From the NCBI GenBank assembly GCA_965645245.1, contig OZ287067.1, positions 620,001-684,000 on the forward strand: a stretch of 64,000 nucleotides of DNA, read 5' to 3'. This document shows, piece after piece, positions 19,469 through 40,438 of this stretch. Numbering within the stretch: position 1 is the stretch's first letter; the number at the start of each line of letters is the position of its first letter. The notes under the pieces are model-generated. The model did no database searches and was not told the origin of the DNA. It was given only the letters and a program-made list of their open reading frames with translations. The position numbers and the translations under genes were made by a program. The DNA is from Massalongia carnosa (Eukaryota).

Positions 19469-20189
19469 CTTGCGGGAGAGTTTACAAAAAGTGTAAGCAT
19501 TCGAAGTTGATAAGATTGTAGTTTCGCATTGGAAAAGGGCGTTTGAATGTGTGAAAATGGAGATATCGGAGATAGTATTTGTGGCAGGCTTACTAATGAT
19601 CATTGATTACCTAACAGCATGATGTGTTCGAGCGTATGTTCTTCATTACATTTTCATGGGTTACGGTCAAGTCACCGTTTTCTTCTGCGTTTTGTACATC
19701 CTGATGGACATGACACAATCTCCTTCACCTCTAACTCTGACCGTTCTCTCCGAGACTCAACAAAACCACCTATACCGACTTTTGGAGTAACAAGTCTTAT
19801 CTTTGGCGTATATCGTCAGGCTCATTGGCTTGAGCATGGCCTATTATCTGTGTAATCTGGGCTTTAAATTCATTAACCATCCTATATCAAACGCAACCTT
19901 TCTCTTATCCCCTTTTGCATCAGCACGCGGCCATTAAATTAGATTCCTAATCAGCAAATCAAAATCAACAGCGACAATGATTATGAAAAAAATTTAAATA
20001 TTCATTTTCAAAGAGAGTACTCGGAACGTAGTTTGAGTTTATAAATATAGAATTTGAAGATTCTGAAGTTTTGAGACAATTACATAGAGGTTTGATATTT
20101 TTATGATCTAGTTAGTTTGAACTTTTTGATCCAGTATTCTCGTACTCGTATAGCCTAGCGAGCTAAACCTCAGCTCTTGATCTCAAGAG

Positions 20190-23189
20190 ATGGGACACGA
20201 CAACATGACCGGCCAATCTCCAGGAGTGCATACCAATTCTGGTCAAAGCTCGTCTTCTTCTCGCCCCATGCTTCGGAATTCTGACGACTCTAACTCCAAT
20301 AACCTAGAAGCCTCAAATCTGGACAAGGACCTTCTTAACGATGATCCCTTGGGAAACAACTCTGATGCTCAGTTGGTCATCTACATCTGCTTACAGTGAC
20401 CCAAGGCTAACGTGACTGAGTATTACGTTCAAGAGAAAGAAAAAACTTCAACCAGGCTTGTCGTTGCCCAAATTCTTGTCTCCCACGCCCTTGACCCACA
20501 ATACCCAGCGAACATATACCAACCTCCCTTTACCCACGGCAAGGAGTCGAAAGCTACGTGAGCTTTCTTCCAACAATACCTCAGAAGTTTCTTTGACTCC
20601 CAGTAACGGCCAGGTGGGTGAAGGGACGTTGAACGACTCCAAGGATGGTGGGGCTTTGGATTGGTACTTGGAAGGACCCGGGCGGAGAGTGGGCTACGAT
20701 GATCTTACCGCAATCGATTGGATTTTTGAATATACCAAAGAGCGTCAACGCTTGCGCTTGTTGTACTCAGTAGCTGGAGGTTTGGTTGGCTATTTACGAC
20801 AGGTCTATGATGCTAGCCAGGTTTGGTTAATCCTCATTGGTGCTGGACTCGCTTCTGGTGTGCTCGCAGCCAGCATCGATGTTGTGAGCGACTGGCTAGG
20901 GGATTTGAAGACAGGATACTGCCGTAAAGGCCCTGGGGGTGGGCAGTTTTATCTGAATAAAGGCTTTTGCTGTTGGGGCCATGAAGGTCTGTAAACCGAG
21001 TTATTTGGATGAAAGAGTTTAACGTTCTGTCAGCATTTTCTCAGTGTCAGGATTGGACGCCTTGGAGTACAGCTCTTCAAGTACGGCCGATTGCAGGTCA
21101 GTACATCGTGGAGTATATATTCTTCATCATATTCTCGGTATGTCCTTATCCATATCATTCGAGAAACAGAGCTAGATTTGATCCAGGTTTTCTTTGCCAT
21201 ATGTGCAAGCGTTCTTGTAAGAGACTATGCAATCTATGCTAAGCACAGCGGAATCCCTGAAATCAAAACTGTGCTTGGAGGCTTTATCATTCGTCGCTTC
21301 ATGAGTGTCTGGACGCTCGTTGTAAAATCTCTTGGTTTGGTATATGTTCCTTTGATCTTAAGATATTTAGCTGGGTACTGATCCACTTGCAGTGTCTTGC
21401 GGTAGCATCTGGTTTATGGCTCGGAAAGGAAGGACCCCTCGTTCATGTAGCATGCTGTTGTGCGAATCTTTTGCTGAAGCTATTCCCGACTTTGAATGAT
21501 AACGAAGGTGAGTACCCGAAGTGTGTAATAGTTACAGCATTTGAATAAAATCCATAGCTCGAAAAAGAGAGGTGCTTTCCGCCGCTGCGGCTGCTGGCAT
21601 CTCCGTTGCCTTTGGATCGCCCATTGGGGGTGTCCTATTTAGTCTTGAGGTAAGTCCTTCGGAGTTTATATCTGAACCCCCAATTTCAAACCCAAATCTG
21701 TGGAGCCAATCCTTACCATACCTAGCAACTATCTTATTACTTTCCGGACAAGACAATGTGGCAAAGCTTTGTTTGTGCAATGGTAGCGGCTGTAACTTTA
21801 AAAGGCTTCAACCCTTTTCGTACAGAAAAGCTTGTCCTATATCAAGTCACCTACAGCAGCGGATGGCATGATTTCGAGATAGTACCCTTTGCCATTTTAG
21901 GAATCGTTGGGGGTATGTATGGGGGACTTTTCATTAGATTAAACATGAAAATTGCCAAATGGCGTAGGGATTCTCGCTGGGTAGCATCGCCTGTGTATGA
22001 GGTACTTGTCGTTACCCTCTGCACTGCTCTTATCAATTTCCCCAACAAATTCATGAGAGCACAGTCATCAGAATTAGTATACATGCTTTTTGCAGAGTGT
22101 ATTGCTGTTACCGATGATCAGTTCGGCATATGCAAGACTGGAACTGCGTCAGCTGGTGTAATTGCACTTTTGCTAGAGGCGGCTGCTCTCGGCTTTCTGC
22201 TGGCTTCGGTTACGTTTGGTTTGCAAATTCCAGCCGGCATCATATTGCCGTCCATGGCCATCGGAGCACTCTACGGCCGAGCCCTCGGAATCGTCGTCGA
22301 GATATGGCAGGGGAACCATCCTAACACACTCATTTTCAGAGGATGCGAACCCGATATTCCATGCATAACCCCAGGGACGTATGCTATCATTGGTGCGGCG
22401 TCTGCGCTTGGTGGTGTTACAAGAATGACCGTTTCCATTGTGGTTATCATGTTTGAGCTAACTGGGGCTTTGACTTATGTTCTTCCAATCATGGTTGCTG
22501 TCATGATCAGCAAATGGGTGGGCGACGCATTCGGGAAACGAGGGATATATGAGACTTGGATACATTTTAATGAGTATCCGTTCTTGGACAATAGAGATGA
22601 AGCTGCAATTCCGGATGTTCCTGTTTCGCAGATAATGACGCAAATAGAGGATATTGCTGTACTGACCGCCACGGGTCATACACTCGAGTCCATTCGCGAC
22701 TTCCTTGTTGCTCAACCATATCGTGGCTTTCCCATCGTATCAGATGCGACGAACAACATCCTATTTGGCTACATTTCTCGCACAGAATTAATGTTTGCTC
22801 TGAAAACAGCAGCCGCCGAACCCAGAAACCTCCCACCCTCGACAGACGTATTCTTCTCTCACCAGCCAATGGTAAATCCCCAAATGACGCTTGATCTCAG
22901 GCCTTGGATGGATCAAACGCCGATCACGCTCAACAGCAAAAGCAGCCTTCAGCTGACAGTCAGCATGTTTCAGAAGCTCGGGCTTCGTTATGTATTGTTT
23001 TGTGAGAAGGGGGGGTTAAGGGGTCTTCTCACGAAAAAGGACGTGTGGTATGTGCTAGATAGCGCTGAGGATGGCCAGCCGAGGATGGGCACTGGGGTTT
23101 TGAGGGAAGACCAGCGAGGTGAAGCTAGAGGCTTGCTGGATCGAGATCATGACCGAGAGTGTATCAGTAGCCCAGCGTATGGGCGTTGA
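20190..23189 (+). CDS. CLC-family chloride channel/transporter with CBS domains
   Basis: Spliced (6 introns). Motifs [30 protein letters not shown] and GIILP, followed by a C-terminal CBS pair. Confidence 0.93.
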
Positions 23190-23793
23190 CCTCTTGGGAC
23201 ATAGATTAGTTCTTTCATATCCAGGTCTGGCATGGAGCCTCCCAAGATTCTGCACCGACTCTGGAGCGAACCAATCAAGGCAATTACATTGTTGATCGCA
23301 ACATTTTACCGACCGAAAGAGACTCACAGCACCGCTTTACGCTATCCCTAATTACGATCCACGTTCCGTGAGTCTGGTGCTACGTTCGGAATAAACCAGG
23401 CGCCGTACGACCCGGTTCTGTGTCTAATGATAAGCTTGGTTGGGCTTAGACACTAACAGGTCTTCAAGAATATACCTACCTTGGCTACCACGTCCTTTGA
23501 AATGAGTATAATGGGTAGAATTAATGCTCGTTGAGCTCTGACCACAAAGCTTTATGGGCGAAACTCAGTTGGGCTAGGTAGCCAGCTTACTTTGTCGTAC
23601 CACCAATTACCGGCTCCGATGGGCAACCGAGCGCTGCAACTTTTGGGATAGGGGAGGGGATGAAAGTAAATGGAAACTGTCCAATGGAAGCTAAAGCATA
23701 TTCCAACATCTGCAATGCTTCACCAGCCAAAAGTACACCAATACCCTGCTTTCAATGAAAGAGCGGTCCCAGTTCCTCCCTCGCACTCCCAAG

Positions 23794-24853
23794 TCAAAAC
23801 CTCGTCCCGTTAACCCCCTGAACCCCCTTCCCCAACTCCGCCGCCACAACCGCCGCTTCCCTGATCCCTCTCGCCAGCGTTCCCCGCACCTTGCCCTCTT
23901 CCAGCACCATCAAGCCCCCAATGCTACATCCACCCGGCGTGCAAACCTTCTCTCTCACCATGGCCGGATGCTCTCCACCTAGCACTAACCCCGAACATCC
24001 CTTCATCGTCTGTGCGGCCATCAGCTGCGCCTCCGCCCGTGGTAGTCCCATCGCCACCGCCCCGTCCGCCATGGCCTCCAGCATCAGTGCGAAAAACGCC
24101 GGCCCAGCGCCGCACAGTGCTGTGCTAGCGTCCATAACCGTCGTAGGAAGTTGTACCACACGCCCAATGCGCGTGAACATCCACATCACCAATGCGTCAA
24201 GGTCGGGGGGAAGCGGTGGCGTGGACGTGGCGATGACGGTCATTGACTCACGGATCAGTGCCGCGGTGTTTGGCATCGCGCGCACGACGATGCAGGGATC
24301 TTCTTCATGACCCACGTCGGTTTCACGCAGGATGTATTCAATCTGGGCCACGGGCACCCCGGCTAGAATGCTAACGAGGAGTTTGCCACGTAGTGCTTTC
24401 GAGACGCCGGGTTCGGATAAGATGGTCCGAAAAACTTGGGGTTTGCAGGCCAGGAGAACGACGGAGGCGGACCGCACACCGAGGAGGTTTTTGGAAACGT
24501 GAATTTCAAGGGAGGGGGCGAGGGCGGAGAGGGCAGCACGGATCCTCTTGGCGGATTCCGGGCGGGTTACGCAGGCTACGAAGTGCGTTGGAATTTGTGG
24601 AGCTAGGAAGGAGGGGGATGCGGTGATGGTGTCGCGAAGGGAGAGGAGAATTCCGGATAGAATGGCGATACCGAGGGTTCCTAAGGGTTTCAGGGTTAGG
24701 CAGTGCGGACCTTGGGGGGATCCTTAGGGGGGGTTACGCACCGCATCCTAGAACTGTTAGGGTTGCGCCATTGTCTTTCTCTTGCCCATCTTTTAAGGAT
24801 GCAGAGTGGTCAGAAGTCGCCTCGAAACGAGTGTTTGGGTCTGTTGCAGCCAT
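23794..24853 (-). CDS. PRO3: Pyrroline-5-carboxylate reductase
   Basis: ATG 24853 and one intron give the Rossmann motif VLGCGTLG; also LACKPQ, VRAMPNTAA, ALCGAGPAF and VCTPGGCSIGGL. Confidence 0.93.
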
Positions 24854-24903
24854 GGTGAAAGGTGCGGCATTGAAACAGCCCATAATTATAATTTATGGAA
24901 TTA

Positions 24904-27047
24904 TCCCTTCGTCTGGCAATTTGGCAGCCACCTTAAATAGGCTTAGTGAGATACCGTAGGGCTGAGTCGCGAACTTCAAAACATTCTCCCCTTTTTTTGT
25001 AAATAAGAAGGTAAACATCAGCTGAAAATCATTAAAAAATCTACAATTTCTTTAGAATAATCATGAGAGGCATTGAGATAGAAGTTCCTGACCAATCAGA
25101 CGCTTTGCCCCCCTCAATTCTGAAAGAACAGGCCAAAAAGAATAAACCCAGCGTACAAAGCATAATTGACTCCATGCCCCCTCCGTCATCAAATTATTGT
25201 CCAATTTCGATCCCATTTCGAAAACCACAGCCGGACGAGACGTTGCGCTTGATAAATCAGACTCCTTTCAGTTTATTCTGCCTCTTTTTTAGGTTTGAAA
25301 TGCTTGAAATCATAGCTAAAAACACCAATCTTAAAGCGAAAAAGAAGTATGCCCTAAACGACATCAAGAGACGTCAATGGCATGACACCTCTTCTTCTGA
25401 AGTAGGAGCTTTTCTGGGAATTCTGTTATATATGGGGTATACACTGATGCCACGTCTTACTGACTATTGGAACACGTCTCCTAAATTTGCCATACATGAC
25501 ATGGGGATTCAAGCCATGAGTCTTCGAAGATGGGAGCAACTCAAGCGATTTTTGAAGATATCCAACCCCGACGAAGATGAGATCATTGATACTCGAGGCC
25601 CTGATTGGTGGAAAAAGCTGGAACCATTGGCCACAGACTTTCGAAAAGCATCAAAGAAATACTGGATTCCTGGAAGTCATGTGTCAGTTGACGAGCAATT
25701 GATTTTATTCAGGGGTAGGAGCTGCCATACTATGCAAATAGCCACCAAGGCGGCTGGTGTAGGCTTCAAAATCTATAGTTTATGTCAGGAAAATTATCTT
25801 TTTGACTTCTTATTTACCTCCAAGGCGAGTAGAAAAGGCCTCAATTTGCATCGTACTAATTGCAAGACAGGTGTCCAAAATTAGTGAGTTAAAAACGCCT
25901 GGACAATTGAAATTTCCGACAACCAAATGGGATTTGTCTCCTTCCTCCCTAGTCGTCATTCAACTGGCTCGAAGTTTACCGTCTGATGAAGGCTTGAAAT
26001 ACGTCATCTTTCTGGACAACTTCTTCACAAATACGAAGCTATTCAAAGCTCTGAAAACCATTGGAATTGGTGCCTGTGGGACGGCTAAATCAGGATGCGG
26101 TTTTCCTGTTGATCTTCTACGTCTGAGGGTTGCAGCCACCAAGAATAAGGACTGGGGAAAGAAGGCATTGATGACGGTACCTGCAAATAAAAGTAAAAAA
26201 TCAAACATTGATGACGGGGACATTCTGTGTATGGCATGGGTGGATTTAAACACCGTGCAATTCATGACCACGGTTCATACAATTGAGGATTTGAAGACTT
26301 CTTTCTACAAGAATTCCCGTCGACGTCATGGAATTCCTGCAAATTCCAGAGTCATCGTTGATGATGAAGAAGAAAAGCTTCCATTTCCCATGCCCATCGT
26401 GGAATATAACCAGCACATGGGCGGGTCAGATGGGAATGCTCAGCAAAGAGCATATTATTCACCTCAAAGATCTGATCGTCGCTACTGGTGGTAAATTTTC
26501 ATCTTTCTTCTGGATGCAGCCGTTCTAAATGCCTTCAAATTGTGGAGAATTCTGTATCCGAATTCAACACTCAGCCATTTGGACTTTCAAAAAGAAATAG
26601 TAAATGCCCTACTATCCAATCAAGCCGGTGCCCTACGGAAACGTCCGACAGATGTCATAGTTACTACTAATCAAGACGTTAATAAAGACGTCGAGTCAAC
26701 TTGCAAATGGGAGCATTTGAATAAGAAGGACTATTGTTTGGCCTGCAAAAGGCAAGTGCCAAGACTCAAACGACGCCGACCACTTGCGGAAATTGATGAA
26801 AATTGCACCAAAAGACGACGTGCAAGTCAGACCAGATGGCAATGTAAGAGCTGTGGACCATGTTGCAAAAAGGAGGCATGTTGGGAAATTTTACATAGAT
26901 CATGAGGGGTGATTGAGGTGTTGTACCCATTATCGTTGAAAAGGGAAAATCTGATTGGCCAGATTAAAGTTATTAGTCATTACCCGGAGACGGCGCGTGT
27001 AAAATTGAATATTACCTAAATGGCTGCCAAATTGCCAGACGAAGGGA
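24904..27047 (+). mobile_element. piggyBac-like DNA transposon (element pB1), 2144 bp, 27-bp perfect TIRs, flanked by TA
   Basis: TCCCTTCGTCTGGCAATTTGGCAGCCA at 24904-24930 and its exact reverse complement at 27021-27047; TA at 24902-3 and 27048-9; encloses a piggyBac-type transposase. Confidence 0.92.
25063..26905 (+). pseudogene. piggyBac-type DDD transposase with one GC-AG intron (25825-25870) and one premature TAA (26492-26494)
   Basis: Motifs VSVDEQ, FLDNFFT, YNQHMGGSD and a C-terminal Cys-rich domain (CLAC...CKSCGPCCKKEACW..H). The frame continues unchanged past the TAA. Confidence 0.88.
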
Positions 27048-27667
27048 TAGCAGTATCAACTTGAGGGGTGTAGCGGCATAACAAAGGAGTGTAGCGATAG
27101 CGGTTCCCTAATGCACTTTTATCCTCTTCCCCTTTGTACTGTCCGTGAAAGCAAGTAGTTTTTTCAAATTTACAGTGCAAACACAACGTTTTGTGACATA
27201 TCTTTTCGGAAATTCAATCCTTGCATAGAGGCACTTATCCAAACGTCTAGAGATCGTAATTAAACAAACTGAAACGTTATTACATAACATGTCTGAAAGG
27301 ACTTCATCCACTTCGATAAAGATCTCTCATAGAGATCCTGCTTCATTTCTTTCATTACCTCGCCTATCTTCACCTCGCTCTCTTCGCCCTCTCCGGCCAT
27401 CTATATCTCCTAGTTGATCGGGCATAGTCTTCTCTCGCGACGTGTTTGTTGAGAACAGTAAACAGAGAGTCGAAACAAGAAAAAAACACATTGAGGTGAT
27501 GACCTCAGTTTCATAATGCTATGACGAAAATATGAAGAATTAAAGAGATGGAAGATTTTTGTTAAATGTCGAGATCTAAAATCTGAAAGATTTGATTGAC
27601 GAAGCTCCGCCTACTCTCAGGGGGGTAGCAGTATCAATTGAGGGGTGTAGTGATAGCGGTTCCCTAA
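27048..27667. repeat. Imperfect direct repeat pair (27048-27111 and 27626-27667) bracketing about 515 bp
   Basis: TAGCAGTATCAA(C)TTGAGGGGTGTAG..GATAGCGGTTCCCTAA occurs twice; the first copy has a 21-nt internal addition. Confidence 0.85.
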
Positions 27668-27851
27668 ATATACTCCACATTAGATTAATGTATTTATCTT
27701 TATACGTATTTAAATGTCTGAGTTGAGAATTAAAATTTTTCGTCATAAGGGTTTAGTTAGTACTTATAGTCCACCCTAGCAACGCCGGCCGCCTTTCTTT
27801 CTGCCCGTCACTACCTTCAATTGGTCGTTTTGCTGTCTATCTTTATCACCG

Positions 27852-28692
27852 ATGGCGGATCCATTCGAAGTTCGCATGCGTTTTACGCATCAGCTACAGC
27901 ATCTTAACGCATCTGCTAACTCGGCGCAAAAAGCCGCGCATTATGCGTTGAAGTACAGAGATATGGACGAGGATCTGCACTCGTGTATTCTCGAGCAATT
28001 AGAAAGAGTATGTGCACCGCTTTGAAGCTCTGCACATTCATGTTCTCAGGCTGAAAACCTTCTCCATTTCAAGAACTCGATGAACAACAGGGCGAATATT
28101 ATGTACTTCATCGAACACCTTTGCGATATGGCCCAGCGGGAGAACCACCTGGACTTCGTCCGGATGATGCAACGTGACATCTTGAGGGTGGTCGATGCTG
28201 TCGCTCCGAGTGACGGTTCAGGGGCTGCAAATGTTAAGGTAGTACGCAGAGTACGTTCTCCCAGGTTCATTATGCGCGTCCGTGGCTGCAGACTTATAAA
28301 ACCAGGTACTCAACGGTCTACAACATAAGTCGATTTTAGTCCAAGATACGGTCATTGAAATCGAAGCATGCTTGAAAGAGCGGGATAGCCTACCGGCGCA
28401 CCCAGCACTCTCCCCTATTGATCCAAATGCGCAGCGAGATCAGCAGCCTAGCCAGGGCGCAACGGCCAAGATCAATGGGGTGGCAAGACTTGATAAGAGG
28501 CAGATTGAGCAGAGGATTGAAGAGGACCGCGAGAGGCATAAGCGATTGAGGGAAAACATATGGGCGGTCAGTGACGAGGGAGATCAGGAATTTCAGAGAC
28601 TTTGGGACGAGGCAAGCGATATTGGAGAGGATGATTATATTGCGGCTGAAGAAGATGCCTTAGAGCGTAGGCGAGCCGTTGAGGTTGAGTGA
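27852..28692 (+). CDS. CTK3: CTD kinase I gamma subunit
   Basis: MADPFEVRMRFTHQLQHLNAS...DEDLHSCILEQLE and C-terminal RIEEDRERHKRLRENIW; 2 GT-AG introns. Confidence 0.9.
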
Positions 28693-29142
28693 TTTTCTTC
28701 ATGATTTTTCCATAATATGATACCCAAGGATCATGTAGAGTATATGCGGATTCCAACAACTTGCTGCTTTAGTTAGCGCTGGCAAATTGAAGTCGAGGCT
28801 TGCGTCTAAGGTGTCGATTAACGCTGCCTTTGAGTTCAAAGGAGACAGTTATTGGGTGTCTGAAGTCTCCTCGAATCGGTGACATATCTGAGCTCATACT
28901 TAAATTGAAGACTAACTCCGGCTGCTTAACAAACGAAACTCAGCTAACGAATTATGCAAACTCGGAGAATTCTCTTAGGTGTCCGATTTTCAGTATATGC
29001 TTATGCTTCCTATGCAAGAGTGGCTCTGCAAATAATACGTTTGTATACAACTGCAATCATTGTATCCCACAGCCCAAAGCACAACCTCACCCCTCTCTAG
29101 TTTTGCCACAGCAGTCCTCCTTCCCCACACAACGCCTTCTAT

Positions 29143-29796
29143 CTAATCCATCTCAACGACCCCTCCGAGCGCCTTTATTGCCTGAATAATCTTCTCCGAC
29201 TCCTCTTTTGGTACCCCATCCTTCATCTTCTTCGGCGCGCTTTCCACAAACTTCTTGCTGTCCACCAAGCTCAGGCCGAGCATGCTTTTGATTTCCTTGA
29301 TGATCTTCGGCTTTGAAGCCGGTTCGAAGGATTTCAGCGTTAGGGTAAATAGAGTCTTCTCTGGCGCTGCGGGCGCTACCTCTTCCTCTTCAACGGGCGC
29401 AGGGACGGCAGGTGCTGCGGCAGCGAATCCGCCCATCGGCATGTCAGGAATGTTAAGTCGGGACTGTAGGTATTAGCTTTATTAGAGATATATATTTCCA
29501 GCCAAGGGACGGTTGTTAAGACATGAACAAAGGGCGCTATGGCACAAGGGATTGATTGCGCATACCTTGAGGCTTGAGACCAAGTCTGCGGTTTCGAGCA
29601 GCGTCAATTGGCTTATTTGGTCCACTATATCCACGACTTTGGGGTTTGTAGCCGTAGCTGTAGATGCCCATCGCCGCGTAGGATTTCTCCGTTGACGCTG
29701 TGAGATTGAGGAGGGCGCAAAAGATGTAGCTTTTATGGGAGTGCGGAAAACGGTTCGGGCACAGCAGCGCGCTGAGTGAGTACAAGAGAGTGACAT
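29143..29796 (-). CDS. MRPL12: Mitochondrial ribosomal protein bL12 (L7/L12)
   Basis: Arg/Ser-rich presequence, IVDQISQLTLLETADLV, Ala/Pro hinge, KIIKEIKSMLGLSLVDSKKFVESAP; 1 intron. Confidence 0.92.
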
Positions 29797-30160
29797 GCTC
29801 TAAGAACAACTGCTGGCTATACTATGTTTGATAATTAAGAACGAGGGTCAAATGCTTGTGAAGGCTGTTGATGTATGGAGCATAGAATTATTTAGCGCCA
29901 TCTTCAATTCGCTTGCATGAGTAGACCGGGAGTATGTATTTTTTTAACCCCCGGTACATAAGCATATAGCTTTCAAACCACAGCCAAGTTTGTACCCCGA
30001 TGGATTTAACGCTATCGAGGCAGGAGTGGATGGTTCTTCAGGCTGTAACAATCACATACGGCTGCTATGAATGCTGGGGGTTAATCTGGGACCTGACTTT
30101 GATGTTGAAAAAGAGGGCTGTAGCACGCAACACAGCGGCAACTTCCACTGAGCACCAATA

Positions 30161-32247
30161 ATGGCTGCTCCAGTCTCAGAAACAGAACCTACTCGGGAAA
30201 GGACTCATAAGCAGGAATCTGGCCAAGTAAAATTAATTGAAGAATCGAGTTTACGAAAAGACCCCTCGAAAGGTCTTGATCAGACGCTGGCGCTCCTCAA
30301 AGCAACCGATGATACCTCTCGATTTGTGGGGTTGGCTTTGCTCAAGTCCATACTGGACCACCAACAAGATTTTCAGAAGGATCCAGAGGTGATCACAAGA
30401 TGCTGGGCTACAATCTCAGCCAGGTTTCTCGACCGGCTTCTCCGAGCATCAGCGAATGAAAAGCGGAGCAAGGAAGAATCTCAAAGTATGGTGGAACTTG
30501 CTGTTGCCATATTGCATGCTTTTACAGTGCTATTACCGCATGAGTTGAGGAATGATAAAAAATTTGTTGGGCGGATAGAGGGACTTCTGTGTGCTCTAGC
30601 TCAGAGGTATATATGCCATTGCTTCAAGAATGGTTATTTGTTGTTCTAGGTAGCTAACGAGACAGTGCGCCAGATTCAAAGACCCAAATATTGCAGATAT
30701 TAGTGACCCTTGCAAGCACGCGGCAAGGCGCAACAGCCTTGTTAAATGCTGAGCATTGGTCTCGACTTATAGAGTTATCAACGGAACATGATCTCGTCTT
30801 GGATGTGATTAAATGCGCGTTTACGATAATTTACTCGCAAAATCTTGCAGAGCCGAGTATTCAGCAGACTATGAATTATTCACTGGCTGTACTGATAGAT
30901 AAGTTCCAAGGCACTTCTAAACAAGCTCTATTGGTTCAAGCGTTTTATGAAATCCTCATTGTACTCCCTGCAGGTGTGAGTTCATGTGTCGAAAATTGTT
31001 TAATAGATCGGGTATTAATCCCCAAATAGGTCCCTTTTTCTTCACCTCCGTGGCTAGGTCCTCTCGCCGACTTAATCTGCCAGTCAACTCTTAGCCGACC
31101 TGGATCCACCTTAGCACGCTATAGGAGACTGGTTGTACTCCTAACAGCACTCCTGCTCTGTCTATTCCCCGTGGAGTTTACTCCCTTGCTTTTCAATGGA
31201 CCTGAAGCAAATCCAGTGTCTCAAGATTCGAAACCAGTATCCTACCTATTCGTTAAGCTGCTCCTCATTGACGTACGATCCACCATTCCCTCCCTCCATG
31301 AATCTATCAGTTCCGATGAATCACCGCCACTAGATGCATTGGCCGCTTCTTACGACATATTATCCGCTTTTATCGGATTCCTAGTCCGACTTCTTGACGA
31401 GGAAATTCCCTCTGCAGAAGATTTTAACAAAATCATTCAACCTTCCACATCTCCGTTCACGCCTTCCCTCCTTCTTCAGCTCCGCGTGGACATTTCAGAA
31501 GCAGTATCCCTCACCATCGAGTCCCTCCGCGACCGCTTCAACACCTTGCCCTCCCCACTCCTCGCAACCGCTGGTCCCTCCACCTCATACCCTTCCAGTA
31601 CCTCATCCCAAGACCCACTTGCCCTCTCTCAAACCCGTGCCTTAGCCCTCTGGCTCCGCGAAGACGACAACTACGCCCTTCGCAAAGAAGCCGCAAGCAT
31701 CACGGACATCCTACTAGGCTTCTATACCGTAGAAGACGATCCGACTCACGCCTTTCGCTCCCCGGTTTTGATAGCGTTAGAAGGCATTGTCGCCGTGCCG
31801 GAAGGCGTGGAAGCCTTTCTCGCAGCGGAGGGATGGGACATCTTAACGAAGGATTTATGCTCTATCCTCTCTCACGCTTTCGATCCCGCAGACTCCTTGC
31901 GCGGCATCGAGATCGTCCGCGTCCTTCTTGCAGTGGCAGAATCTGACGTCGTGGGACCAGTGAAGGAGGATTGGATGGTGATTGTCGATATGGTGACAAG
32001 TAGCATGGTTTCCGAGGACATGGAGCTGGAGCTGGAGCTGGGCATCGCGGTCGCGCAATTGGCTGTGGAGCTGTTGGTGCGCGTACCGAGGAATGTACGG
32101 CGGAGATGGATGGAGGCTGCAGACGGAGTGGCGAATGTGGCGAGGGAGATTTTGAGGAGGGGGTATGGGGGAAATGGAGTTCTTGAAGGAGCGAAAGAGG
32201 TGCTTGGCGCGTTGCAGGGGTTGGGTGTTGGAGTTGGTGGGGGATAA
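30161..32247 (+). CDS. Neurochondrin-like (DUF1941-type) helical repeat protein
   Basis: N-terminal LLKATDDTSRFVGLALL and FLDRLL; C-terminal RALALWLRED; 2 introns join three ORFs. Confidence 0.7.
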
Positions 32248-32342
32248 AGATGAGATTGTGGACGGTATGTAGGGTAAAATGATACAGACCTGTTTTGGGG
32301 GAGATGGGGAAGAAGCCGTTTCAACGTCCTCTCAGGTTGTAA

Positions 32343-32529
32343 ATACATGGCTGTAGAGGATACATGGCTGTAGAGGATACATGGCTGTAGAGGATACATG
32401 GCTGTAGAGGATACATGGCTGTAGAGGATACATGGCTGTAGAGGATACATGGCTGTAGAGGATACATGGCTGTAGAGGATACATGGCTGTAGAGGATACA
32501 TGGCTGTAGAGGATACATGGCTGTAGAGG
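32343..32529. repeat. Perfect minisatellite (ATACATGGCTGTAGAGG)x11
   Basis: 187 bp = 11 identical 17-mers with no spacers. Confidence 0.97.
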
Positions 32530-32878
32530 GGGTTTTGCATCATTAACGGTAGCTGTCATCTGTTCGTAATCGCAAATTTGCAAGGAGAATACTATATTTT
32601 CAACTCCCATGCATTCTCCGAGTGAGGTGCGGCGTGTTTATATGTCATTTATCACGCTCGGCATGCTAGTTGCGGCAGCTTCTTCGAAAATGCTAAAGGG
32701 TGTGACGTGCGATCAGTTCCATGACACCAACTTCTCATGCAAAGAAAAACTGTATGCCAAATCTATAAGTTCCCCCGCTTCGAAACGATAGAAACCCTTC
32801 AAAAATTAGGTACTCCCCAGTTTCCATCATTTAAACAAAATTCAATATCCCGCTTTCTCTCTCCTCCCTCTTCTGCAA

Positions 32879-34271
32879 CTAATGAGCATGTCCAATCTGC
32901 GTCACAAGCGGCAAAAGCATCCCCCCAACAGCCGCAACCACAAGCTTCGCGCTGCGCCTCCCGCCGCCCTGTTGGCCCCCTCTGATATGCGGGGCGCGGC
33001 CGCTGCCGTCTAGGTAGCCGTTATTATTATTATGGGTGGAGGAGGGTTCAAGGTCGAGGGATAAGGGAGAGGAGGGGTTATCGTGCTCGCGCATGGTGTG
33101 CATTGCTACGTATCTGAGAGGTGAGGGAAATTAGATAGAGCTTTCATAGGGGAAGGCGGAGAAGTTGGGAGATTTAAAGAGAAGACGAGGAAGGAAAGGA
33201 ATAATATTAGGGCGGCTTACAGAAAGGTACCACCAGAGAATAGTAACAAGACCCCTGTCCACCACCTCATTGTCACTTCCTCTCCGCCACCGCCGCCCAA
33301 CGTCCTCACAATCACCCACGTCCCCACTGCTCCTACAGGCGCCGCAAGGCTGAATACCACCAAATGAGCCCTAGCACCCCTCTTTCCAAGGCCCTGCTTC
33401 AGCAGCACGGACGTGAGCCCAAAGGCCGCAGGCGCTTTATGTACCATTATAGCGACAAAAATAATAAGGGAGAGGGAAGTAGTGGCGGTAGAGGAAGAAG
33501 ACGCGCCAAGAGCAATTCCGTCGGCCGCAGCGTGGATACAGAGACCAAGAGTTGTAGATAGGGTGCGGGAGGGAGGTGGAGGCGGAGGGGTGGAGGCGAG
33601 GTCGGAAAGGGAGTAGATGTTTGTTGTTGGGGCACGGGAGTTGGAGGAGCCGGAGAGGGCGGGAAGCGTGTCGAGAAGGTACATGAGGATGAAGCCGAGG
33701 ATTAAAGAAAGCCCAATCCAGACGTGTGGGGTACGGGGGGAGGGAGGTTTGGAGGGTGTTGTCGAGTTGGGGGTGGCGAGGATGTGAAGTTCGTCTGGTG
33801 AAGAGGGAGTTAAAGGGGGAGGGTGGTTTTCTGCGTCAGCAGCAGGGACCACAGGGCCCGGGAGGGCGTTGTATAGGCTTGAAGCAGGAATGTCGTCGTC
33901 TTTAGAATACAGGCTTCTCTTGGGGAAATCGAGAGAATGGACAATCGTTTCTGGATTGGAATGCAATCTTTGCGAGCGCGGGAACATGTCTCTTTGGAGG
34001 TGTGCGTGGATGGGGAGTTCACTGGCGCTGTAAAGAGTGTCGACGCCTTCGGGTATGATGACTATTAGGGATGTGCCCACCAGTACGCCCATGCCGATTG
34101 TCGAGATTAATCGCAGTCGCGACTGCGAGAGGGGAAAGGATAAAGGTAATGAGCCAGCGAAGAAGGATCTAGGATTTATTAACTCTAGGTTTTGTACACA
34201 AGAAGGAGAACAACCCACGCAACTGCCATCACTGTGCTCAAAGTGAGCAGCATGAACAGACCGTCCAGCAT
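32879..34271 (-). CDS. ATX2: ZIP-family metal transporter, ZIP9/Atx2 type
   Basis: GMGVLVGTSLIVIIPEG, IHAAADGIALG, MVHKAPAAFGL and GGTFLYVAMH after splicing 2 introns. Confidence 0.85.
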
Positions 34272-34549
34272 CTTGGGGAAAGGTGCCCCGAAGCCCCTGT
34301 TCTCTTATCTTCCAAAGAAAACCCCACTGGCTAGGCCAAGCCTAGAATTATTAGCTCTCTAGAGACCGCGCATACTGAAGATTGTACTTCGATTCGATGG
34401 TTGGAGCGTAGCATGCACGATTGGGTAAAAAACCACAGGTAAACCACAGGTAAAGAATACCTATTTAATTCTATTCCAGACGTTACATCGTACTCGGTCT
34501 TTTGGCGCAATGGGACCGGATTAACGTCAACGACCGGTCCTGTTCAAAT

Positions 34550-36681
34550 ATCCAAGCTAAACCATTGTTGGTTAGAAAGCGCTAAACCTTAAAATTTTGA
34601 CCAATCAATGTTATTCCTATTCACAAGAAGTTCATATTCATATGTATGTACGGCGGAGTATCAGATACCTATTTACTCGTCCCCCATCATATGAATAGCT
34701 TCCCAACAGCTGGCTTTCTTACAGCAGGGCCTGATTGGATTGCATCCTCCACAAGCCCATATAGTCTGAGCACCCCTTCGCCTTCTTTTTCGCCCATCGA
34801 CACTTATTTCAGCCAGTGGCTCTCCCTTCCGCTTTGAAGGTCGTTTTTTCTCGGCGTTACATTGCACACATCTTTTTCTGCCTTCAAGACGAACGTAATG
34901 ATGAATGGGAGATGGTACTAAAGCATCAATCGCGGTATTGATGCTTATCTTTGATGAGCCGGGCCTGATGCCCGCTTGATTTGACATCAGTTCAAGAGCA
35001 ATCCGATGAAGAAATTCAGAACGAGTAAATTTTATCTCCTCGGAATCGAAAGAGTTCAGCGAGTAAATTTTATAGGTATTCAATCCGGCTGCATATAAAA
35101 TAAAAATGAACAAAGGCCATCAGTAACGATCCGTTCGACGGTTGTATGAGTAAATCGCTCGTTGCTGAGCGTTTCCATCCGATCCCCCCATATGAAGATT
35201 ATACTCTTTGATTAGGGCTGGTATCGGTAATCCTAAGGGCCGTTGAACCTCTTGATTGAGCAAGGGAATGGAGTGAGCCAGAGTTGATGGGAAATACGAT
35301 ACAATAGTTGAAGAGAGGTCTCGGGAATTCCATATCTCTTGTGCGGATTTATATAGTGCATTTCGTACAAGTCCTGAGGAGAATGACCGGTGGTCATGTA
35401 CTGCACACCATTATTATCCACCCAGCCCATACAAAGCACCTTATCGTCGACCACCATATGGGCCTGAAGACCCCAGTCTTTTCCTTTTGAAGTGACGTCC
35501 CGTATGGCCAACAATTCTTCTGAAAAGCCCAAGCCCTTTTTAGCAGTTCCACTGGCAGCTATTCCGATTGATCGAAGTGCCTTGAATAATTTCGTACTAG
35601 TAAAGAAATTATCACAGAATAGATGACAATTCAGTGAGGATGGAAGTTCTTTACATAACTGAATCACTAGCAAAGCATTAGGAGTTAGTTTATCTTTTGG
35701 CAAAAATCCCAATTGTCTGATTGTTTTCAATTCACTTATTCTGCTACTTTTCGAGGCAAACATAAATGACAACAGATAATTATCCTGACAGAGACTGTAG
35801 ATTTTGAATCTTTATGGGCACTTTTTGTAGTAATCTGCAAGGTATGTCGAGAACGGCCCTTGAATAACCCCAGCTGTTCATCTATAGATGTCATACTTCC
35901 TGGTCTGCAATGTTTCAATGAAGTCTTTCGGAAATCAGTAGCCAACGGTTCCAGTTTCTTCCACCAATCAGGTCCTTGATCAAGTCCGATAGGCTCAGTC
36001 CGTCCATTATTGATTTTCAAAATCGTTTGATTTGTTGAAATCGACCAAGCGACATCGCTGACAGAATAGGCATGATGATTGGTTTGTCAGGACGTTGATT
36101 CCAATAATCCTCTGTAGCAGGTAGATGATCGAGTCCCATAAGAACTATTATGCCCAAAAAAACCTCAATTTCCGAGTCAGTAGTGTCAGTCCAAACCCGA
36201 TAATTGTTCTCCTTCTCCTTTTCCATGTAGTTATATGCCTTGATATTGGTATGATTTGCGATGATACGACAATGCTGCCTTGTTATAAATAACCGAAATA
36301 ATCCCAAAGGATTTCGAGAATCGTTTTCAACGAGCGGAACAAAAGGCCTGTTTTCAACCCGAATGGGGGTATATTTTGAGGAAATAGGGGGAAGGTCGAT
36401 TAAAATATCTCGAACACTTCTTTTGCGATTTATTTTATGTTGCTTTGCTGAAATGGGAGATTTGTCTGAATTGAGCGTCATACTTATAATATCAATTCCG
36501 AAGCTAGAAGAATAGTAATTTATGTGATTAATTTTGATTGAGTGACCGAATAGTATTCTTTGAAAAGTAAACAAACGCGCAAACACTCAAGAGAAAACTA
36601 ATGTTCTCATGACTCATCGGTGCGCAAGCTAATCCAATATAGATTAGCTTGAGGGGGGTGCTAGAATGACAGCGAGAGGGA
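34550..36681 (-). mobile_element. Degenerate piggyBac-like transposon (element pB2), related to pB1; only one terminus intact
   Basis: The right end reads TA|TCCCTCTCG on the minus strand (36681; TA 36682-3). A diverged copy of its subterminal CAAGCTAA...TTAG..GCGC block lies at about 34553-34582; the outer left TIR was not found, so the left boundary is approximate. Confidence 0.75.
34673..36481 (-). pseudogene. piggyBac-type transposase pseudogene
   Basis: Shares GPDWWKKLEPLATDFRK, SIDEQ, FCDNFFT, MGGSDGNAQQR and CCKK..CW with pB1. Frameshifts at about 36017 and 35810, a frame change or intron at about 35235-35300, and TGA at 35120-35122. Confidence 0.88.
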
Positions 36682-36689
36682 TACGAGTA

Positions 36690-38631
36690 ATCGTGCTAGA
36701 CCACTTTCGGAATGCAGAGAGCACCCCTTAGTGCTTACCGGCTCAAAGACGCTACCGGCTCAAAGACGCATTTTTCAACACCTCAACATTAAAAAAATCA
36801 GACCTTCATGAAAAGACGTCCAAATAGCTTCATTTCGGGTTTAAAATCTACTGCTCAGTCTGTTCTACTAACAGGCCCTGCCCTAGTAAAAATCGGACGT
36901 TGTCTAACTGGGTTGATGAGGCCTTTTTCCCCTTATTAGCCTCCCTTTGTTCCTTTCGTCTAGCCTTTTCTTCCTCTTTTTTTTGACGAATTGAACATAA
37001 TTCTCTACATTGACTGACTTTTATGACTCCACCCTTTGCAGCTACCTGACCCCCGAGAGCGGCCCGACTTTTACGCGATGTGGTGGCTTTTTGCACTTGC
37101 TGAAGGTCCCGCGTAGTCAAATCTAGGGTGTTGGCGGAGGTGATGGAGGCCCTAATAAATTTCTGAAAACCGTCCACTGTTTTTTTATCCATCCATCCAC
37201 CGATCGGCCCGGCCGCGGTCAATGCCCTTTGCAATTTGTGACCGAATTTTCTGATTGATTCGGGGCCTCGAGGGGTGCGCTCATGAAATTGAAGAGGTAG
37301 GGGGCTCGGGGTGCGGGGTTCATTCCTAATTTCCAAGGCTGCAGCTTGCTTCTGACGAATGACGTCGAGTACCATGTTCGGATTGAATGGGACGATGCCG
37401 GTGGTCCTGAATGCATGACGAATAGTAGATGATTTGAATGTCTTGTTGCGAAATTCCTGGAATGCGGCTAAAAATTCCAATTTTCCAAATTCCGTGTCTC
37501 CCATTCGTATCGCATGATCAATGGCCTCAGCATGATAGTGTTTGTACGGCTGAAAAACACCTACATCTAACGGCTGAGTCAAATGAGTAGAATGTGCTGG
37601 AAGACGAAATAGAACGATCTGATTTTCAGTGGCCAGCTTCAAAAACGGAATGGTTGAATGAGACCCAAACCCGTCGATGACTAGAAGTAGCCAAGCTCCA
37701 CGTCTTTTAGTCCGTGTATGCTCGATGAAATGACGAAGCCAATCCATGGCTAAATCGTCATTTGAATAGCCGGTCTCGCTGGTCCCAATCAACGTCTCTC
37801 CGTCGAGATCGTTGTGTTGACACCATTTATGAAGAATATGAATACCCGAAAGAATAAGTAATGGTGGAATAACGTCACCGGCCGAGCTGATACACTCTAC
37901 AGAAGTAATGTAGTCACGATTATCCGGATCAGTCATACGAAGAGGCTTTCGTGGGTCCAAGGTGATTACTATTTGAGCTCGTCCGCATCCAATTCGAAAG
38001 CCTGTTTCGTCCATATTCCATACATCCAGCTCCGTTATTCCCTTTTCCCTCATCACCCTTTCTAATTTGCTGAAATATTCAACCATATCGTTAACGTCGT
38101 GACTATTTTTTCGATCGACTGCGAGAGGCTTCTGTTTTCGTACATGAAGCTCGGGATTTCGATCAAGAAATCGCTTCAGCCACTGATGACCAAGAGTACG
38201 ATTCTCAAAACGAATCAGATAATTTGCAGCCCCCACGATCAATTTGGGTCGCGCACACATGTTGGCCTTGTCCAATCGCTCGATGTAGTCACGAACAGCT
38301 TGTTCTTGCTCATCCGTCAGAGCTTTGTTGGTACTAGGTCGACTGCTTTTGGAGTTGCCTCCATTCCATCGTTTTTGAACCGTACGAGGGGCAACGTCAA
38401 AAGCTATAGCTGCAGCTCGACAATTAGTATACAAACCATCATGTAACGCGTCAATTGCACTGTCAATTCGATCCTCGATAGCTGAATATGAATTGACCAT
38501 TATGTTGTTGATTGTTGACGTGTCGAAGTTGAGGTGTAAAATGTTGAAAATGCGTCTTTGAGCCGGTAGCGTCTTTGAGCCGGTAAGCACTAAGGGGTGC
38601 TCTCTGCATTCCGAAAGTGGTCTAGCACGAT
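36690..38631 (-). mobile_element. Fot1/pogo (Tc1/mariner superfamily) transposon, 1942 bp, 85-bp perfect TIRs, TA TSD
   Basis: 36690-36774 is the exact reverse complement of 38547-38631; TA at 36688-9 and 38632-3; each TIR has two tandem 17-mers TACCGGCTCAAAGACGC. Confidence 0.95.
36848..38500 (-). CDS. Intact DD35D pogo-type transposase (550 aa)
   Basis: ATG 38500. N-terminal HTH (AAAIAFDVAPRTV), CENP-B-type HTH (WLKRFLDR), then WNMDETGF, VIDGFGSH and QPLDVGVF with 35 residues between the last two Asp. Confidence 0.93.
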   Translation of the reverse strand: MVNSYSAIEDRIDSAIDALHDGLYTNCRAAAIAFDVAPRTVQKRWNGGNSKSSRPSTNKALTDEQEQAVRDYIERLDKANMCARPKLIVGAANYLIRFENRTLGHQWLKRFLDRNPELHVRKQKPLAVDRKNSHDVNDMVEYFSKLERVMREKGITELDVWNMDETGFRIGCGRAQIVITLDPRKPLRMTDPDNRDYITSVECISSAGDVIPPLLILSGIHILHKWCQHNDLDGETLIGTSETGYSNDDLAMDWLRHFIEHTRTKRRGAWLLLVIDGFGSHSTIPFLKLATENQIVLFRLPAHSTHLTQPLDVGVFQPYKHYHAEAIDHAIRMGDTEFGKLEFLAAFQEFRNKTFKSSTIRHAFRTTGIVPFNPNMVLDVIRQKQAAALEIRNEPRTPSPLPLQFHERTPRGPESIRKFGHKLQRALTAAGPIGGWMDKKTVDGFQKFIRASITSANTLDLTTRDLQQVQKATTSRKSRAALGGQVAAKGGVIKVSQCRELCSIRQKKEEEKARRKEQREANKGKKASSTQLDNVRFLLGQGLLVEQTEQ

Positions 38632-38730
38632 TAGTAAGTCCCTCTGCGCGAACGAGAACAAGTCTCCGCTTTTGGCTTCGTCTTTTCTTTACCTCCACCT
38701 TCATCGCATAGCTGACATTGATCACTAAAG

Positions 38731-40438
38731 ATGACTGACCAGGAAGAATGTTGGGTTCCGCGCCTTTTCTCAATACCTATAGACTTGCTAAAAATTCTAC
38801 AGGGTCAAGTGATTCGAGCGAAGCCGTACACATCTCAATAGTCCAAGCTGGGCAAACCTCCCCTGAGATACTCTCAACCTTCCACCCACAGTTCACATAT
38901 CCGATTTTTGGTGAAGAGGAGAGGATTTTTGGCTATCAGGGACTTCGGATTGCTCTGCAGTTTGCCGCGCACGACTTGCGCTCAAATGTGCAAATCAGTT
39001 ATGACAAAAAGTTTATCCCTGTTGGAGAGACTATGGCTACGGATATTCAAGAGACCTTGAATGGATGGATACCGTCAAGTGAATCACTACCTTTCCGTCA
39101 GGCTGGTAAGGTTGGAGGCTAAACAATTGGGTTAACAGCTACGTTCGACAGCCATACCGATTTCAAGACTCAACTCCAGAATGATTCCTTCGCTAAAGAC
39201 TGGAAACCACCTGGACAGCTCATTGAGAGCTACAGCAGCAGAAACAGCACTTTCGAAATATGGAGCGGTGAACTGAGGGATCCAGCCGTACGAGAAATCA
39301 TCAGCCGAATACAAATCTTCGTTTCCTTCTTTGTGGAAGGCGGGATGCCCCTAGACCTCGATGACGAGGAATGGACGCAGGCACGATGGCGGGTCTTCTT
39401 TCTGTAACTAGCTACCTTCTCCTTTCACATCGATGCTCGCTAATACACCGCCCCCACAGCTACGAGAAGCTTCCAGCATCCCCTCTCCCATACACTTCTC
39501 CATACTCCTTTGTTGGCTACTCAACCTCTTACCGATTCCTCACCTACGTCCCATGTCCTACCAAACCTTCCCTTCAAACCTTCACCCTCCCTGTCTTAAC
39601 GCCCATCCAACCTAGCTCTCTTCCCTCCCGCGCCCGTATCTCACAATTCCTCATACTGCCCCCCCACCAGCACCACTCGCAGGGCACGCACCTCTTCAAC
39701 ACTATGACAAACACCTTCTTATCAGATCCCACCGTCTCCGAAATTACCGTCGAGGACCCCAACGAGGCCTTTGACGACCTGCGCGACTACTGTGACTACA
39801 CCCGCCTTCAGAAAACCAATGCCTTCGCCCAAATTTCCCTCAATACCACCCCTCCTCCTCCAGAACTTTTGCGAAAGCGCGTCGTGCCCACATCCCACCT
39901 TCTCAATCTCGACCTCCTCGAATCCTTGCGCAAAAAGAACAAGCTCGCCCCGCGCCAGTTCTACCGTCTCATAGAGCTGTACCTGCTTAGCCGCATCCCG
40001 CCGCACAAGCGTCAGTCTGGTACGGCGCGCCTGACGCAGCGAGGTAAAGCAAGTGACGCTGACGATCGCGCGTTCTACTACTGGCGCCTGCTAGTGAAGC
40101 AGCGCGTGTACAAGAAGAACCGCGATGTGCTTATGCAGTTGGAAAAAGCCGAGCGGATCGATAAGGTGGAGCAGACTGTTGGGGAGGTGGCGGGGGATTA
40201 CGAGAGGCTTCTGAGAGGATTGGAGGAGAGAGCCGGGGCCGCGGGTGCGGGTGGGGCGGTGAATGGAGGCGGAGAGAGAGGGGTGAGGAGAGGGAAGAGA
40301 AAGGTTATAATGGATAACGATGAGGAGGAGAAAGAGAAGAAGGATGTGGAGGAGCAAGTGCATACTAGTGGCGACGATAAGGCGCAGGGAGATGGAGGGG
40401 GCGCAGAAAAGCCGGCGAAGCGAAGGAAGGGTGCTTGA
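38731..40438 (+). CDS. HAT1: Histone acetyltransferase type B catalytic subunit
   Basis: FHPQFTYPIFGEEERIFGYQGL, RARISQFLILPPHQ and EITVEDPNEAFDDLRDYCD; 3 introns. Confidence 0.95.

Follow-up and report, generated by a model that had tools for sequence, protein, structure and literature searches.

A TA-flanked piggyBac-superfamily transposon in Massalongia carnosa and TA-TCCCT tips shared by a wider fungal branch

The DNA analysed here (the window) comprises 64,000 nt of the Massalongia carnosa assembly GCA_965645245.1 (contig OZ287067.1, positions 620,001 to 684,000 of the forward strand) and contains, at window positions 24902-27049, a 2,148-bp transposon of the piggyBac superfamily that we call pB1. 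It sits between a pyrroline-5-carboxylate reductase gene and the next gene; the genes flanking it are eukaryotic housekeeping genes (CLC channel, pyrroline-5-carboxylate reductase, ribosomal protein L7/L12), and the host is a lichen-type ascomycete. TTAA is treated as a hallmark of piggyBac elements, whereas pB1 is bordered by TA. Its two arms (24902-24930 and 27021-27049) are 29 nt long, 100% complementary and separated by 2090 nt, the inverted sequence starting TATCCCTTCG... (in full TATCCCTTCGTCTGGCAATTTGGCAGCCA). Read inward, the left tip is tTA-TCCCTTCG and the right tip cTA-TCCCTTCG. In each arm we distinguish an outer TA, a putative target-site duplication (left copy at 24902-24903, right copy at 27048-27049), from the terminal inverted repeat (TIR) proper, TCCCTTCGTCTGGCAATTTGGCAGCCA at 24904-24930 on the plus strand, which is 100% complementary to its partner at 27021-27047 on the minus strand. 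The right-hand TA also provides the first two bases of an adjoining repeat, R1. The window contains the hexamer TATCCC 14 times and GGGATA 17 times, where about 15.6 occurrences of either are expected, and among their pairs only that of pB1 forms a long inverted repeat (29/30, against 18/30 for two others); a search of the window for miniature derivatives found no further TATCCC...GGGATA pair with extended complementarity.

Between the arms of pB1 lie three stop-to-stop frames, two of which match the piggyBac transposase family PF13843 (DDE_Tnp_1_7) with E-values of 2.5e-32 and 7.4e-16. The gene starts with an ATG at 25063; its first exon (25063-25824, plus strand, 254 aa; PF13843 E 4.1e-31, profile positions 1-174) carries the first catalytic Asp in SVDEQ and aligns to residues 130-302 of the Trichoplusia ni piggyBac structure 6x67 (E 1.2e-10), with D268 opposite the Asp of SVDEQ. 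The second exon (25871-26905, plus strand, 344 codons and a stop; PF13843 E 1e-21, profile positions 187-349) contains the Asp residues of LDNFF and GGSD, the motif MGGSDGNAQQR and a Cys-rich tail, so that the two exons jointly span profile positions 1-349. The 46 nt between them (25825-25870, plus strand, GCGAGT...TACTAAT...CAG) shift the frame by +1 between the two PF13843 halves and, judged from their sequence, would be spliced out as an intron; taking them out joins LFTSK to VSKISELK. At the same position pB2, a second element described below, reads straight through, and the relative P0019 has an in-frame insert. The GC 5' splice site may be a mutated GT. An in-frame TAA at 26492-26494 (RRYWW-stop-IFIF) disables this copy; in our alignment A1 this position is occupied by a residue in 15/15 relatives (P in 11, S in 3, L in 1). 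For the Cys-rich tail (CLAC...CKSCGPCCKKEACW..H), Pfam reported no zinc-finger family, and the profile alignment extends to residue 574 of piggyBat.

A second, decayed piggyBac-type family, pB2, occupies 34553-36681 on the minus strand (to 36683 with the flanking TA at 36682-36683). Its left tip is intact and reads gTA-TCCCTCTCG from 36683 on the minus strand; its right repeat has lost the outer ~32 nt, and the right end is intact elsewhere, as a loose end at 36644 among the read contigs. The copy contains a TGA stop and has lost single nucleotides at three or more places, each a frameshift, as is evident from one extra base in other copies at 36018, 35809 and 35306. Thus TA-TCCCT (the hyphen marking the edge of the TIR) is found at all three intact ends in the window, i.e. 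pB1 left, pB1 right and pB2 left.

Seven public runs contain part of positions 24000-28000, one of them labelled lichen metagenome, and contigs of runs X1, X5, X6 and X7 were compared with window positions 20000-39999. The summed depth of pB1, pB2 and the neighbouring element E3 (see below) lies far above that of the flanks in X1 and X5; the three are multi-copy, although summed depth is not a copy number. The match of pB1 copies at other sites in X6 and X7 starts exactly at 24902 or stops exactly at 27049, with unrelated flanks beyond (...GAATG-TATCCC, GGGATA-TTAGCC and GGGATA-CCAACC). One pB1 copy in X7 has a 479-bp internal deletion (window 25462-25940) and is likely a non-autonomous derivative. 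X6 contains a loose end at window position 25539, where a contig joins ACG-TATCCCTCTAGCGCCATCCG... to the pB1 interior; this looks like the tip of a further TA-TCCCTCT family fused to a truncated pB1. In X1, a contig of depth 92 is missing the 57 nt at 24999-25055, shortly before the start codon of pB1, a piece that reads GT...AG and could be an intron of the 5' untranslated region missing in some copies, or else reflect RNA in a run labelled 'DNA?'.

Searching more widely, we scanned metagenome contigs with protein guidance and obtained 56 matching stretches, three of which (L001, L002 and L003) encode a relative. L003 was rejected as an independent locus, as it represents the same insertion as L002 (99.46% identity over 4643 nt), so two independent elements with DNA remain. 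No relatives were found in prokaryote genome contigs or in viral contigs, an exact scan of Joint Genome Institute (JGI) metagenome contigs for the pB1 repeat gave 0 matches, and matches in the ESM Atlas were generic PF13843 clusters only. Both elements have long inverted ends: L001 (211-2383 of its contig) reads cag-TATCCCTTAACCTG...CAGGTTAAGGGATA-atg, and L002 (2971-5277) reads agg-TATCCCTTTGACCGG...CCGGTCAAAGGGATA-act. They share the form TATCCCTT...AAGGGATA, with TA-TCCCTT at both ends; their transposases are 45% (L001) and 32-34% (L002) identical to the second exon of pB1. The insertion points of the two elements were also inspected for an interrupted gene from which an empty site could be derived in silico, but no long open frame reaches them.

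The four families (pB1, pB2, L001 and L002) hence have TA and TCCCT in common and diverge beyond approximately the eighth base. At every end a T stands next to CCC and an A next to GGG, so that in pB1, L001 and L002 the CCCT/AGGG core lies one base inside the tip (TCCCT...AGGGA). The base outside the TA varies: at left ends it is T or G, at right ends G, A, A, C or T. With three ends in the window, four in L001 and L002, and the pB1 copies in X6 and X7, the TA-TCCC tips are a lineage trait of a wider fungal branch and not a product of decay. In this respect the sequence-only reading of the window, which had proposed a piggyBac-type lineage with TA-TCCCT termini, was borne out: re-reading returned its tTA, cTA and gTA tips, the 29-nt arms of pB1 are perfect, both halves of the gene belong to PF13843, and the TTAT and ATAG outside the pB1 core form no duplication, TA alone being duplicated.

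One might argue that the four families are conventional piggyBac elements that duplicate TTAA, the flanking copies of which have since mutated. In its available portion, a 2017 survey (PMC5381638) lists TTAT, ATAG, ATAT and ATAA as rare sites, such 4-mers occurring with single-copy elements, and invokes mutation since the two sides differ; moreover, pB1 and pB2 are mutated copies themselves. However, a decayed TTAA would leave an A next to CCC and is excluded on that ground: T, not A, occupies this position at 7/7 directly read ends of the four families (both ends of pB1, L001 and L002 and the left end of pB2), and the same T lies within the aligned part of the additional pB1 copies in X6 and X7. 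TTAA itself was found at 0/7 of these ends, nor does it occur in the X6 and X7 flanks. The pB1 flanks are also young, because the 29-nt repeats are perfect. The NTAT and ATAN forms of the 2017 list in turn look as if TA-T...A-TA had been read four bases outward from CCC, at least in the part of the survey at hand, which also describes a Paracoccidioides element with a 50-bp repeat. We consider mutated TTAA flanks highly improbable.

The transposase itself was compared with the solved TTAA-specific enzymes. A profile of 16 clade members matches piggyBat (9c0f, E 9.7e-13) and T. ni piggyBac (6x67, E 6.3e-06), and all three residues of the catalytic Asp triad (DDD) are in place, SVDEQ standing opposite D268, LDNFF opposite C345-D346 and GGSD opposite D447. 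The pair YN opposite Y439/N440 is invariant in the 16-row alignment. In sum, piggyBac (IFP2 of T. ni; 6x67/6x68) and piggyBat (Myotis lucifugus; 9c0f) share with the pB1 clade the Pfam family, the DDD triad, YN...GG.D, a Cys-rich stretch towards the C-terminus and ends built on a CCCT...AGGG core; they differ from it in having TTAA flanks with CCC first, where the pB1 clade has a TA flank and an extra T/A at the tips, and in two residues, the equivalent of Tyr283 being Q or R in the clade and that of D450 being Ala in the sub-branch of pB1, pB2 and L001. Tc1/mariner-pogo elements such as E3 resemble pB1 in their TA flanks, fungal host and similar size, but their transposase is unrelated: E3 carries DDE_1 and HTH_Tnp_Tc5, whereas PF13843 is the only family found in pB1, with no transposase of the DDE_1 or DDE_3 type.

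The sequence-only reading had noted that both transposases in the window share MGGSDGNAQQR, which lacks the usual downstream Asp, and had linked this to the unusual ends. The motif is indeed present in both, with Asp opposite D447 and Ala opposite D450 (by HMMER alignment to 6x67), i.e. pB1 lacks the second Asp of PxxxxxxYxxxxGGVDxxD. We collected 189 relatives and found the motif in 148 of them (not in 41); opposite D450, 79 of these carry A, 48 D, 9 N, 5 S, 4 Q, 2 V and 1 L. A quick maximum-likelihood tree of 88 rows comprises pB1, L001 and L002 together with the 85/189 proteins that have both Asp motifs two and three and 60 or more residues beyond them. A split with 99% support in the Shimodaira-Hasegawa-like approximate likelihood-ratio test (SH-aLRT) separates 41 rows including pB1 and L001 (35 A, 4 Q, 1 S and, on a long branch, 1 D) from 47 rows including L002 (42 D, 4 N and 1 S). 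L002 keeps the downstream Asp (NAVDLADQ) and yet has the same TA-TCCCTT tips, across this split, so the D450 change is not tied to the TA tips. D450A is reported to be active in vitro, and an Ajellomyces protein without the full GGVDxxD motif had already been noted (both PMC2533014). Of the proposal that this is a clade with a different target, the part on TA is thus probably right, while the Asp motif as its cause has to be dropped.

A different residue fits the tips better. The position of Tyr283, which is Tyr in both solved TTAA-specific transposases (6x67 and 9c0f), is Q in pB1 and pB2 (the latter aligned by eye) and R in L001 and L002; among the 189 database relatives, the nine that cover the region have N, S, K, R, R, K, T, D and T, i.e. 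Tyr in 0/9. On these alignments the Tyr283 position tracks the TA tips better than D450 does. According to the available text on the T. ni structures (PMC7351741), the unpaired TTAA has its outer A stacked by Y283 of the omega-loop, its inner A contacted base-specifically by N440 and its inner T held in a pocket formed by Y439, V414 and L416. A loss of the outer contact with the inner contacts kept would fit recognition of TA alone.

A rival reading is a transposase that keeps the canonical 4-bp stagger but centres it on TA (target NTAN or ATAT), so that the T/A next to CCC/GGG would derive from the target. Ciliate PiggyMac cuts with just such a 4-bp stagger centred on TA. In favour of this reading, Y439 and N440, through which T. 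ni piggyBac touches the central T and A, are conserved, and the 4-bp offset is structurally imposed in that enzyme, as far as the accessible text of PMC7351741 goes. Such a mechanism, however, requires identical 4-mers on the two sides, and the 4-mers outside CCC/GGG are TTAT/ATAG in pB1, GTAT/ATAA in L001 and GTAT/ATAA in L002; with unequal 4-mers on the two sides, no 4-bp duplication is possible. ATAT is excluded likewise, as it would need an A outside the left TA (found in 0/5 left ends) and a T outside the right TA (1/5). A TA-centred 4-bp stagger is therefore very unlikely.

If nothing beyond TA is duplicated, the TA itself may come from the target or belong to the element. An X1 contig (depth ~26) that matches the flanks of pB1 almost perfectly (4 differing letters in 1333 nt on the left, 31 in ~5.2 kb on the right) lacks pB1, and its match to the window continues through 24904, that is, GGAAT-TA-T; the insertion is hence polymorphic or at least young, and the pB1 copy in the window is an ordinary, disabled and polymorphic transposon. 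This pB1-free allele keeps the TA. The same dinucleotide begins the R1-type repeat at 27626 and the inverted copy of the repeat in X1. The copy at 27626, which the sequence-only reading had already cited as a sign that TA is target DNA, holds up: 27626-27650 matches 27048-27073 at 96% over 26 nt, with TA at the start of both. To our knowledge, cut-and-paste elements of the DDE (Asp-Asp-Glu) type without duplications are rare. A published case is known from truffles: in the available part of Belfiori et al. 2013 (PLoS One 8:e82353, PMC3864998), Ti_tr1 of Tuber indicum is a 2,351-bp insertion in the MAT1-2 idiomorph of one strain, with a PF13843 transposase, 52-bp inverted ends and target-site duplications of TA, not TTAA, and its classification is left 'unclear' by its authors. 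There TA was called a duplication from a strain-specific insertion. All this speaks against taking TA as the outermost bases of the TIRs (TATCCC...GGGATA), inserted without target duplication, a view in favour of which it can be said that TA is invariant at every end seen, that nothing beyond it is duplicated and that no clean empty site was recovered. We regard TA as part of the repeat as unlikely, and TA as a 2-bp target-site duplication as likely.

Several points weigh against the duplication nonetheless. As a palindrome that occurs at every end, TA does not reveal from the flanks alone whether it is a duplication or the outermost part of the repeat. In the pB1-free X1 allele, GGAATTAT is followed by 319 nt of different sequence in place of window positions 24905-27119, and 75 of these nt are an inverted copy of 27048-27122; the empty site predicted from the window alone, GGAATTAGCAG, did not turn up, and no clean filled/empty pair was found in runs X1, X5, X6 and X7. 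The X6 right flank CCAACC is a consensus of two contigs with an agreement of 0.62, and the DNA of relatives is limited to two elements (L001 and L002). Ti_tr1 and pB1 are compared by description, not by sequence or TCCC tip, within what PMC3864998 offers in its accessible part. Finally, the active-site positions of T. ni piggyBac mandate a 4-bp offset (PMC7351741, as far as available), so that a 2-bp stagger would need a changed synapse geometry. On balance, we think that pB1 is a recently inserted, now disabled, multi-copy cut-and-paste element of the piggyBac superfamily, from a TA-flanked fungal branch in which TA is likely the target duplication.

With TA as the duplication, the following mechanism can be envisaged. 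Elements of the fungal branch end 5'-TCCCT...AGGGA-3' with TA on both sides, which would be the target duplication. Their transposase would join ...GGGA-3' ends to TA with a 2-bp stagger, as opposed to ...GGG-3' ends to TTAA with a 4-bp stagger, and the loss of the Tyr283-type contact to the outer TTAA base, with the Y439/N440-type contacts kept, would lead to recognition of TA alone. The origin of TA in the target, the 2-bp stagger and the part played by Tyr283 are what we infer from the ends and residues described above.

An element of the pB1 kind is not new, given the TA-duplicating piggyBac-like element reported in T. indicum in 2013. On the descriptions available (PMC3864998), Ti_tr1 resembles pB1 as an ascomycete element of ~2.2-2.4 kb with a PF13843 gene containing introns, long TIRs, TA borders and presence in only some strains, and pB1 likewise combines a PF13843 transposase with TA at both borders; the two differ in repeat length (52 bp in Ti_tr1, 29 bp in pB1), exon number (three against two) and protein size (566 aa against ~598 aa). 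The novelty implied by the sequence-only reading, which had itself counted an earlier description with this duplication as evidence against it, is thereby partly lost. What is new is the conservation of TA-TCCCT across a wide fungal branch, down to ~32% transposase identity, and the finding that the tip is independent of the D450 change and coincides with the loss of a Tyr283-type residue. In the literature on piggyBac elements with TA or fungal duplications, on lichens, on D450 and on structures, as far as its texts were available, TA is given for a piggyBac-type element only in PMC3864998. A study of fungal PiggyBac elements reports them in Mucoromycota, Microsporidia and Pezizomycotina, without discussing duplications in its accessible part (PMC5751038), and another (PMC13461360), by its available text, retained only elements with TTAACC at no more than 2 mismatches. 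Surveys take TTAA to be universal, and because they either invoke mutation (PMC5381638) or select TTAACC-like ends (PMC13461360), insofar as their available texts show, a TA-flanked fungal branch is easily missed or misfiled.

The three results on the tips turn a single remark on a truffle element into a testable claim on a change of target choice in piggyBac, of relevance for the annotation of fungal transposons and, if confirmed at the bench, for piggyBac-derived tools. It is conceivable, at somewhat less than an even chance, that the whole fungal piggyBac neighbourhood, including both branches of the deepest split in the 88-row tree, moved from a 4-bp TTAA to a 2-bp TA target, with one base pair taken into the tip and the Tyr lost. 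If this were true, the spacing of the active sites in the transpososome would differ, and a piggyBac-like vector with far more target sites could follow.

Some further features of the window concern its other repeats. R1 (27048-27122, plus strand) directly adjoins pB1 and is found in inverted orientation in run X1, and R2 (27626-27668, plus strand, starting TAGCAG) is a shorter direct copy of it. Both start TAGCAGTATCAA; the two direct copies are 578 nt apart. R1 has a TA at either edge and may represent one terminus of a further TA-flanked element. An Rfam search of 24500-28000, asking whether the repeat is a known RNA, returned a single chance-level match (E 0.95).

E3 (36690-38631, minus strand) is a pogo/Tc5-type transposon, separate from the piggyBac elements and inserted beside the pB2 tip, with TA at 36688-36689 and 38632-38633, 93-nt inverted ends and matches to DDE_1 (E 9.5e-21) and HTH_Tnp_Tc5 (E 9.3e-07). 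It is absent in X1, where the 1950 nt of 36684-38633 are missing and the TA adjoining the pB2 tip is directly followed by the sequence from 38634 onward (GGGA-TA-GTAAGT, against GGGA-TA-CGAG-TA-E3-TA-GTAAGT in the window); a simple TA duplication at E3 would leave six bases (CGAGTA) over. Between pB1 and pB2, a tandem array of about 12 copies of the 17-nt unit ATACATGGCTGTAGAGG extends over 32292-32563 and is polymorphic in length, being shorter in X1 by 153 nt, i.e. by nine units.

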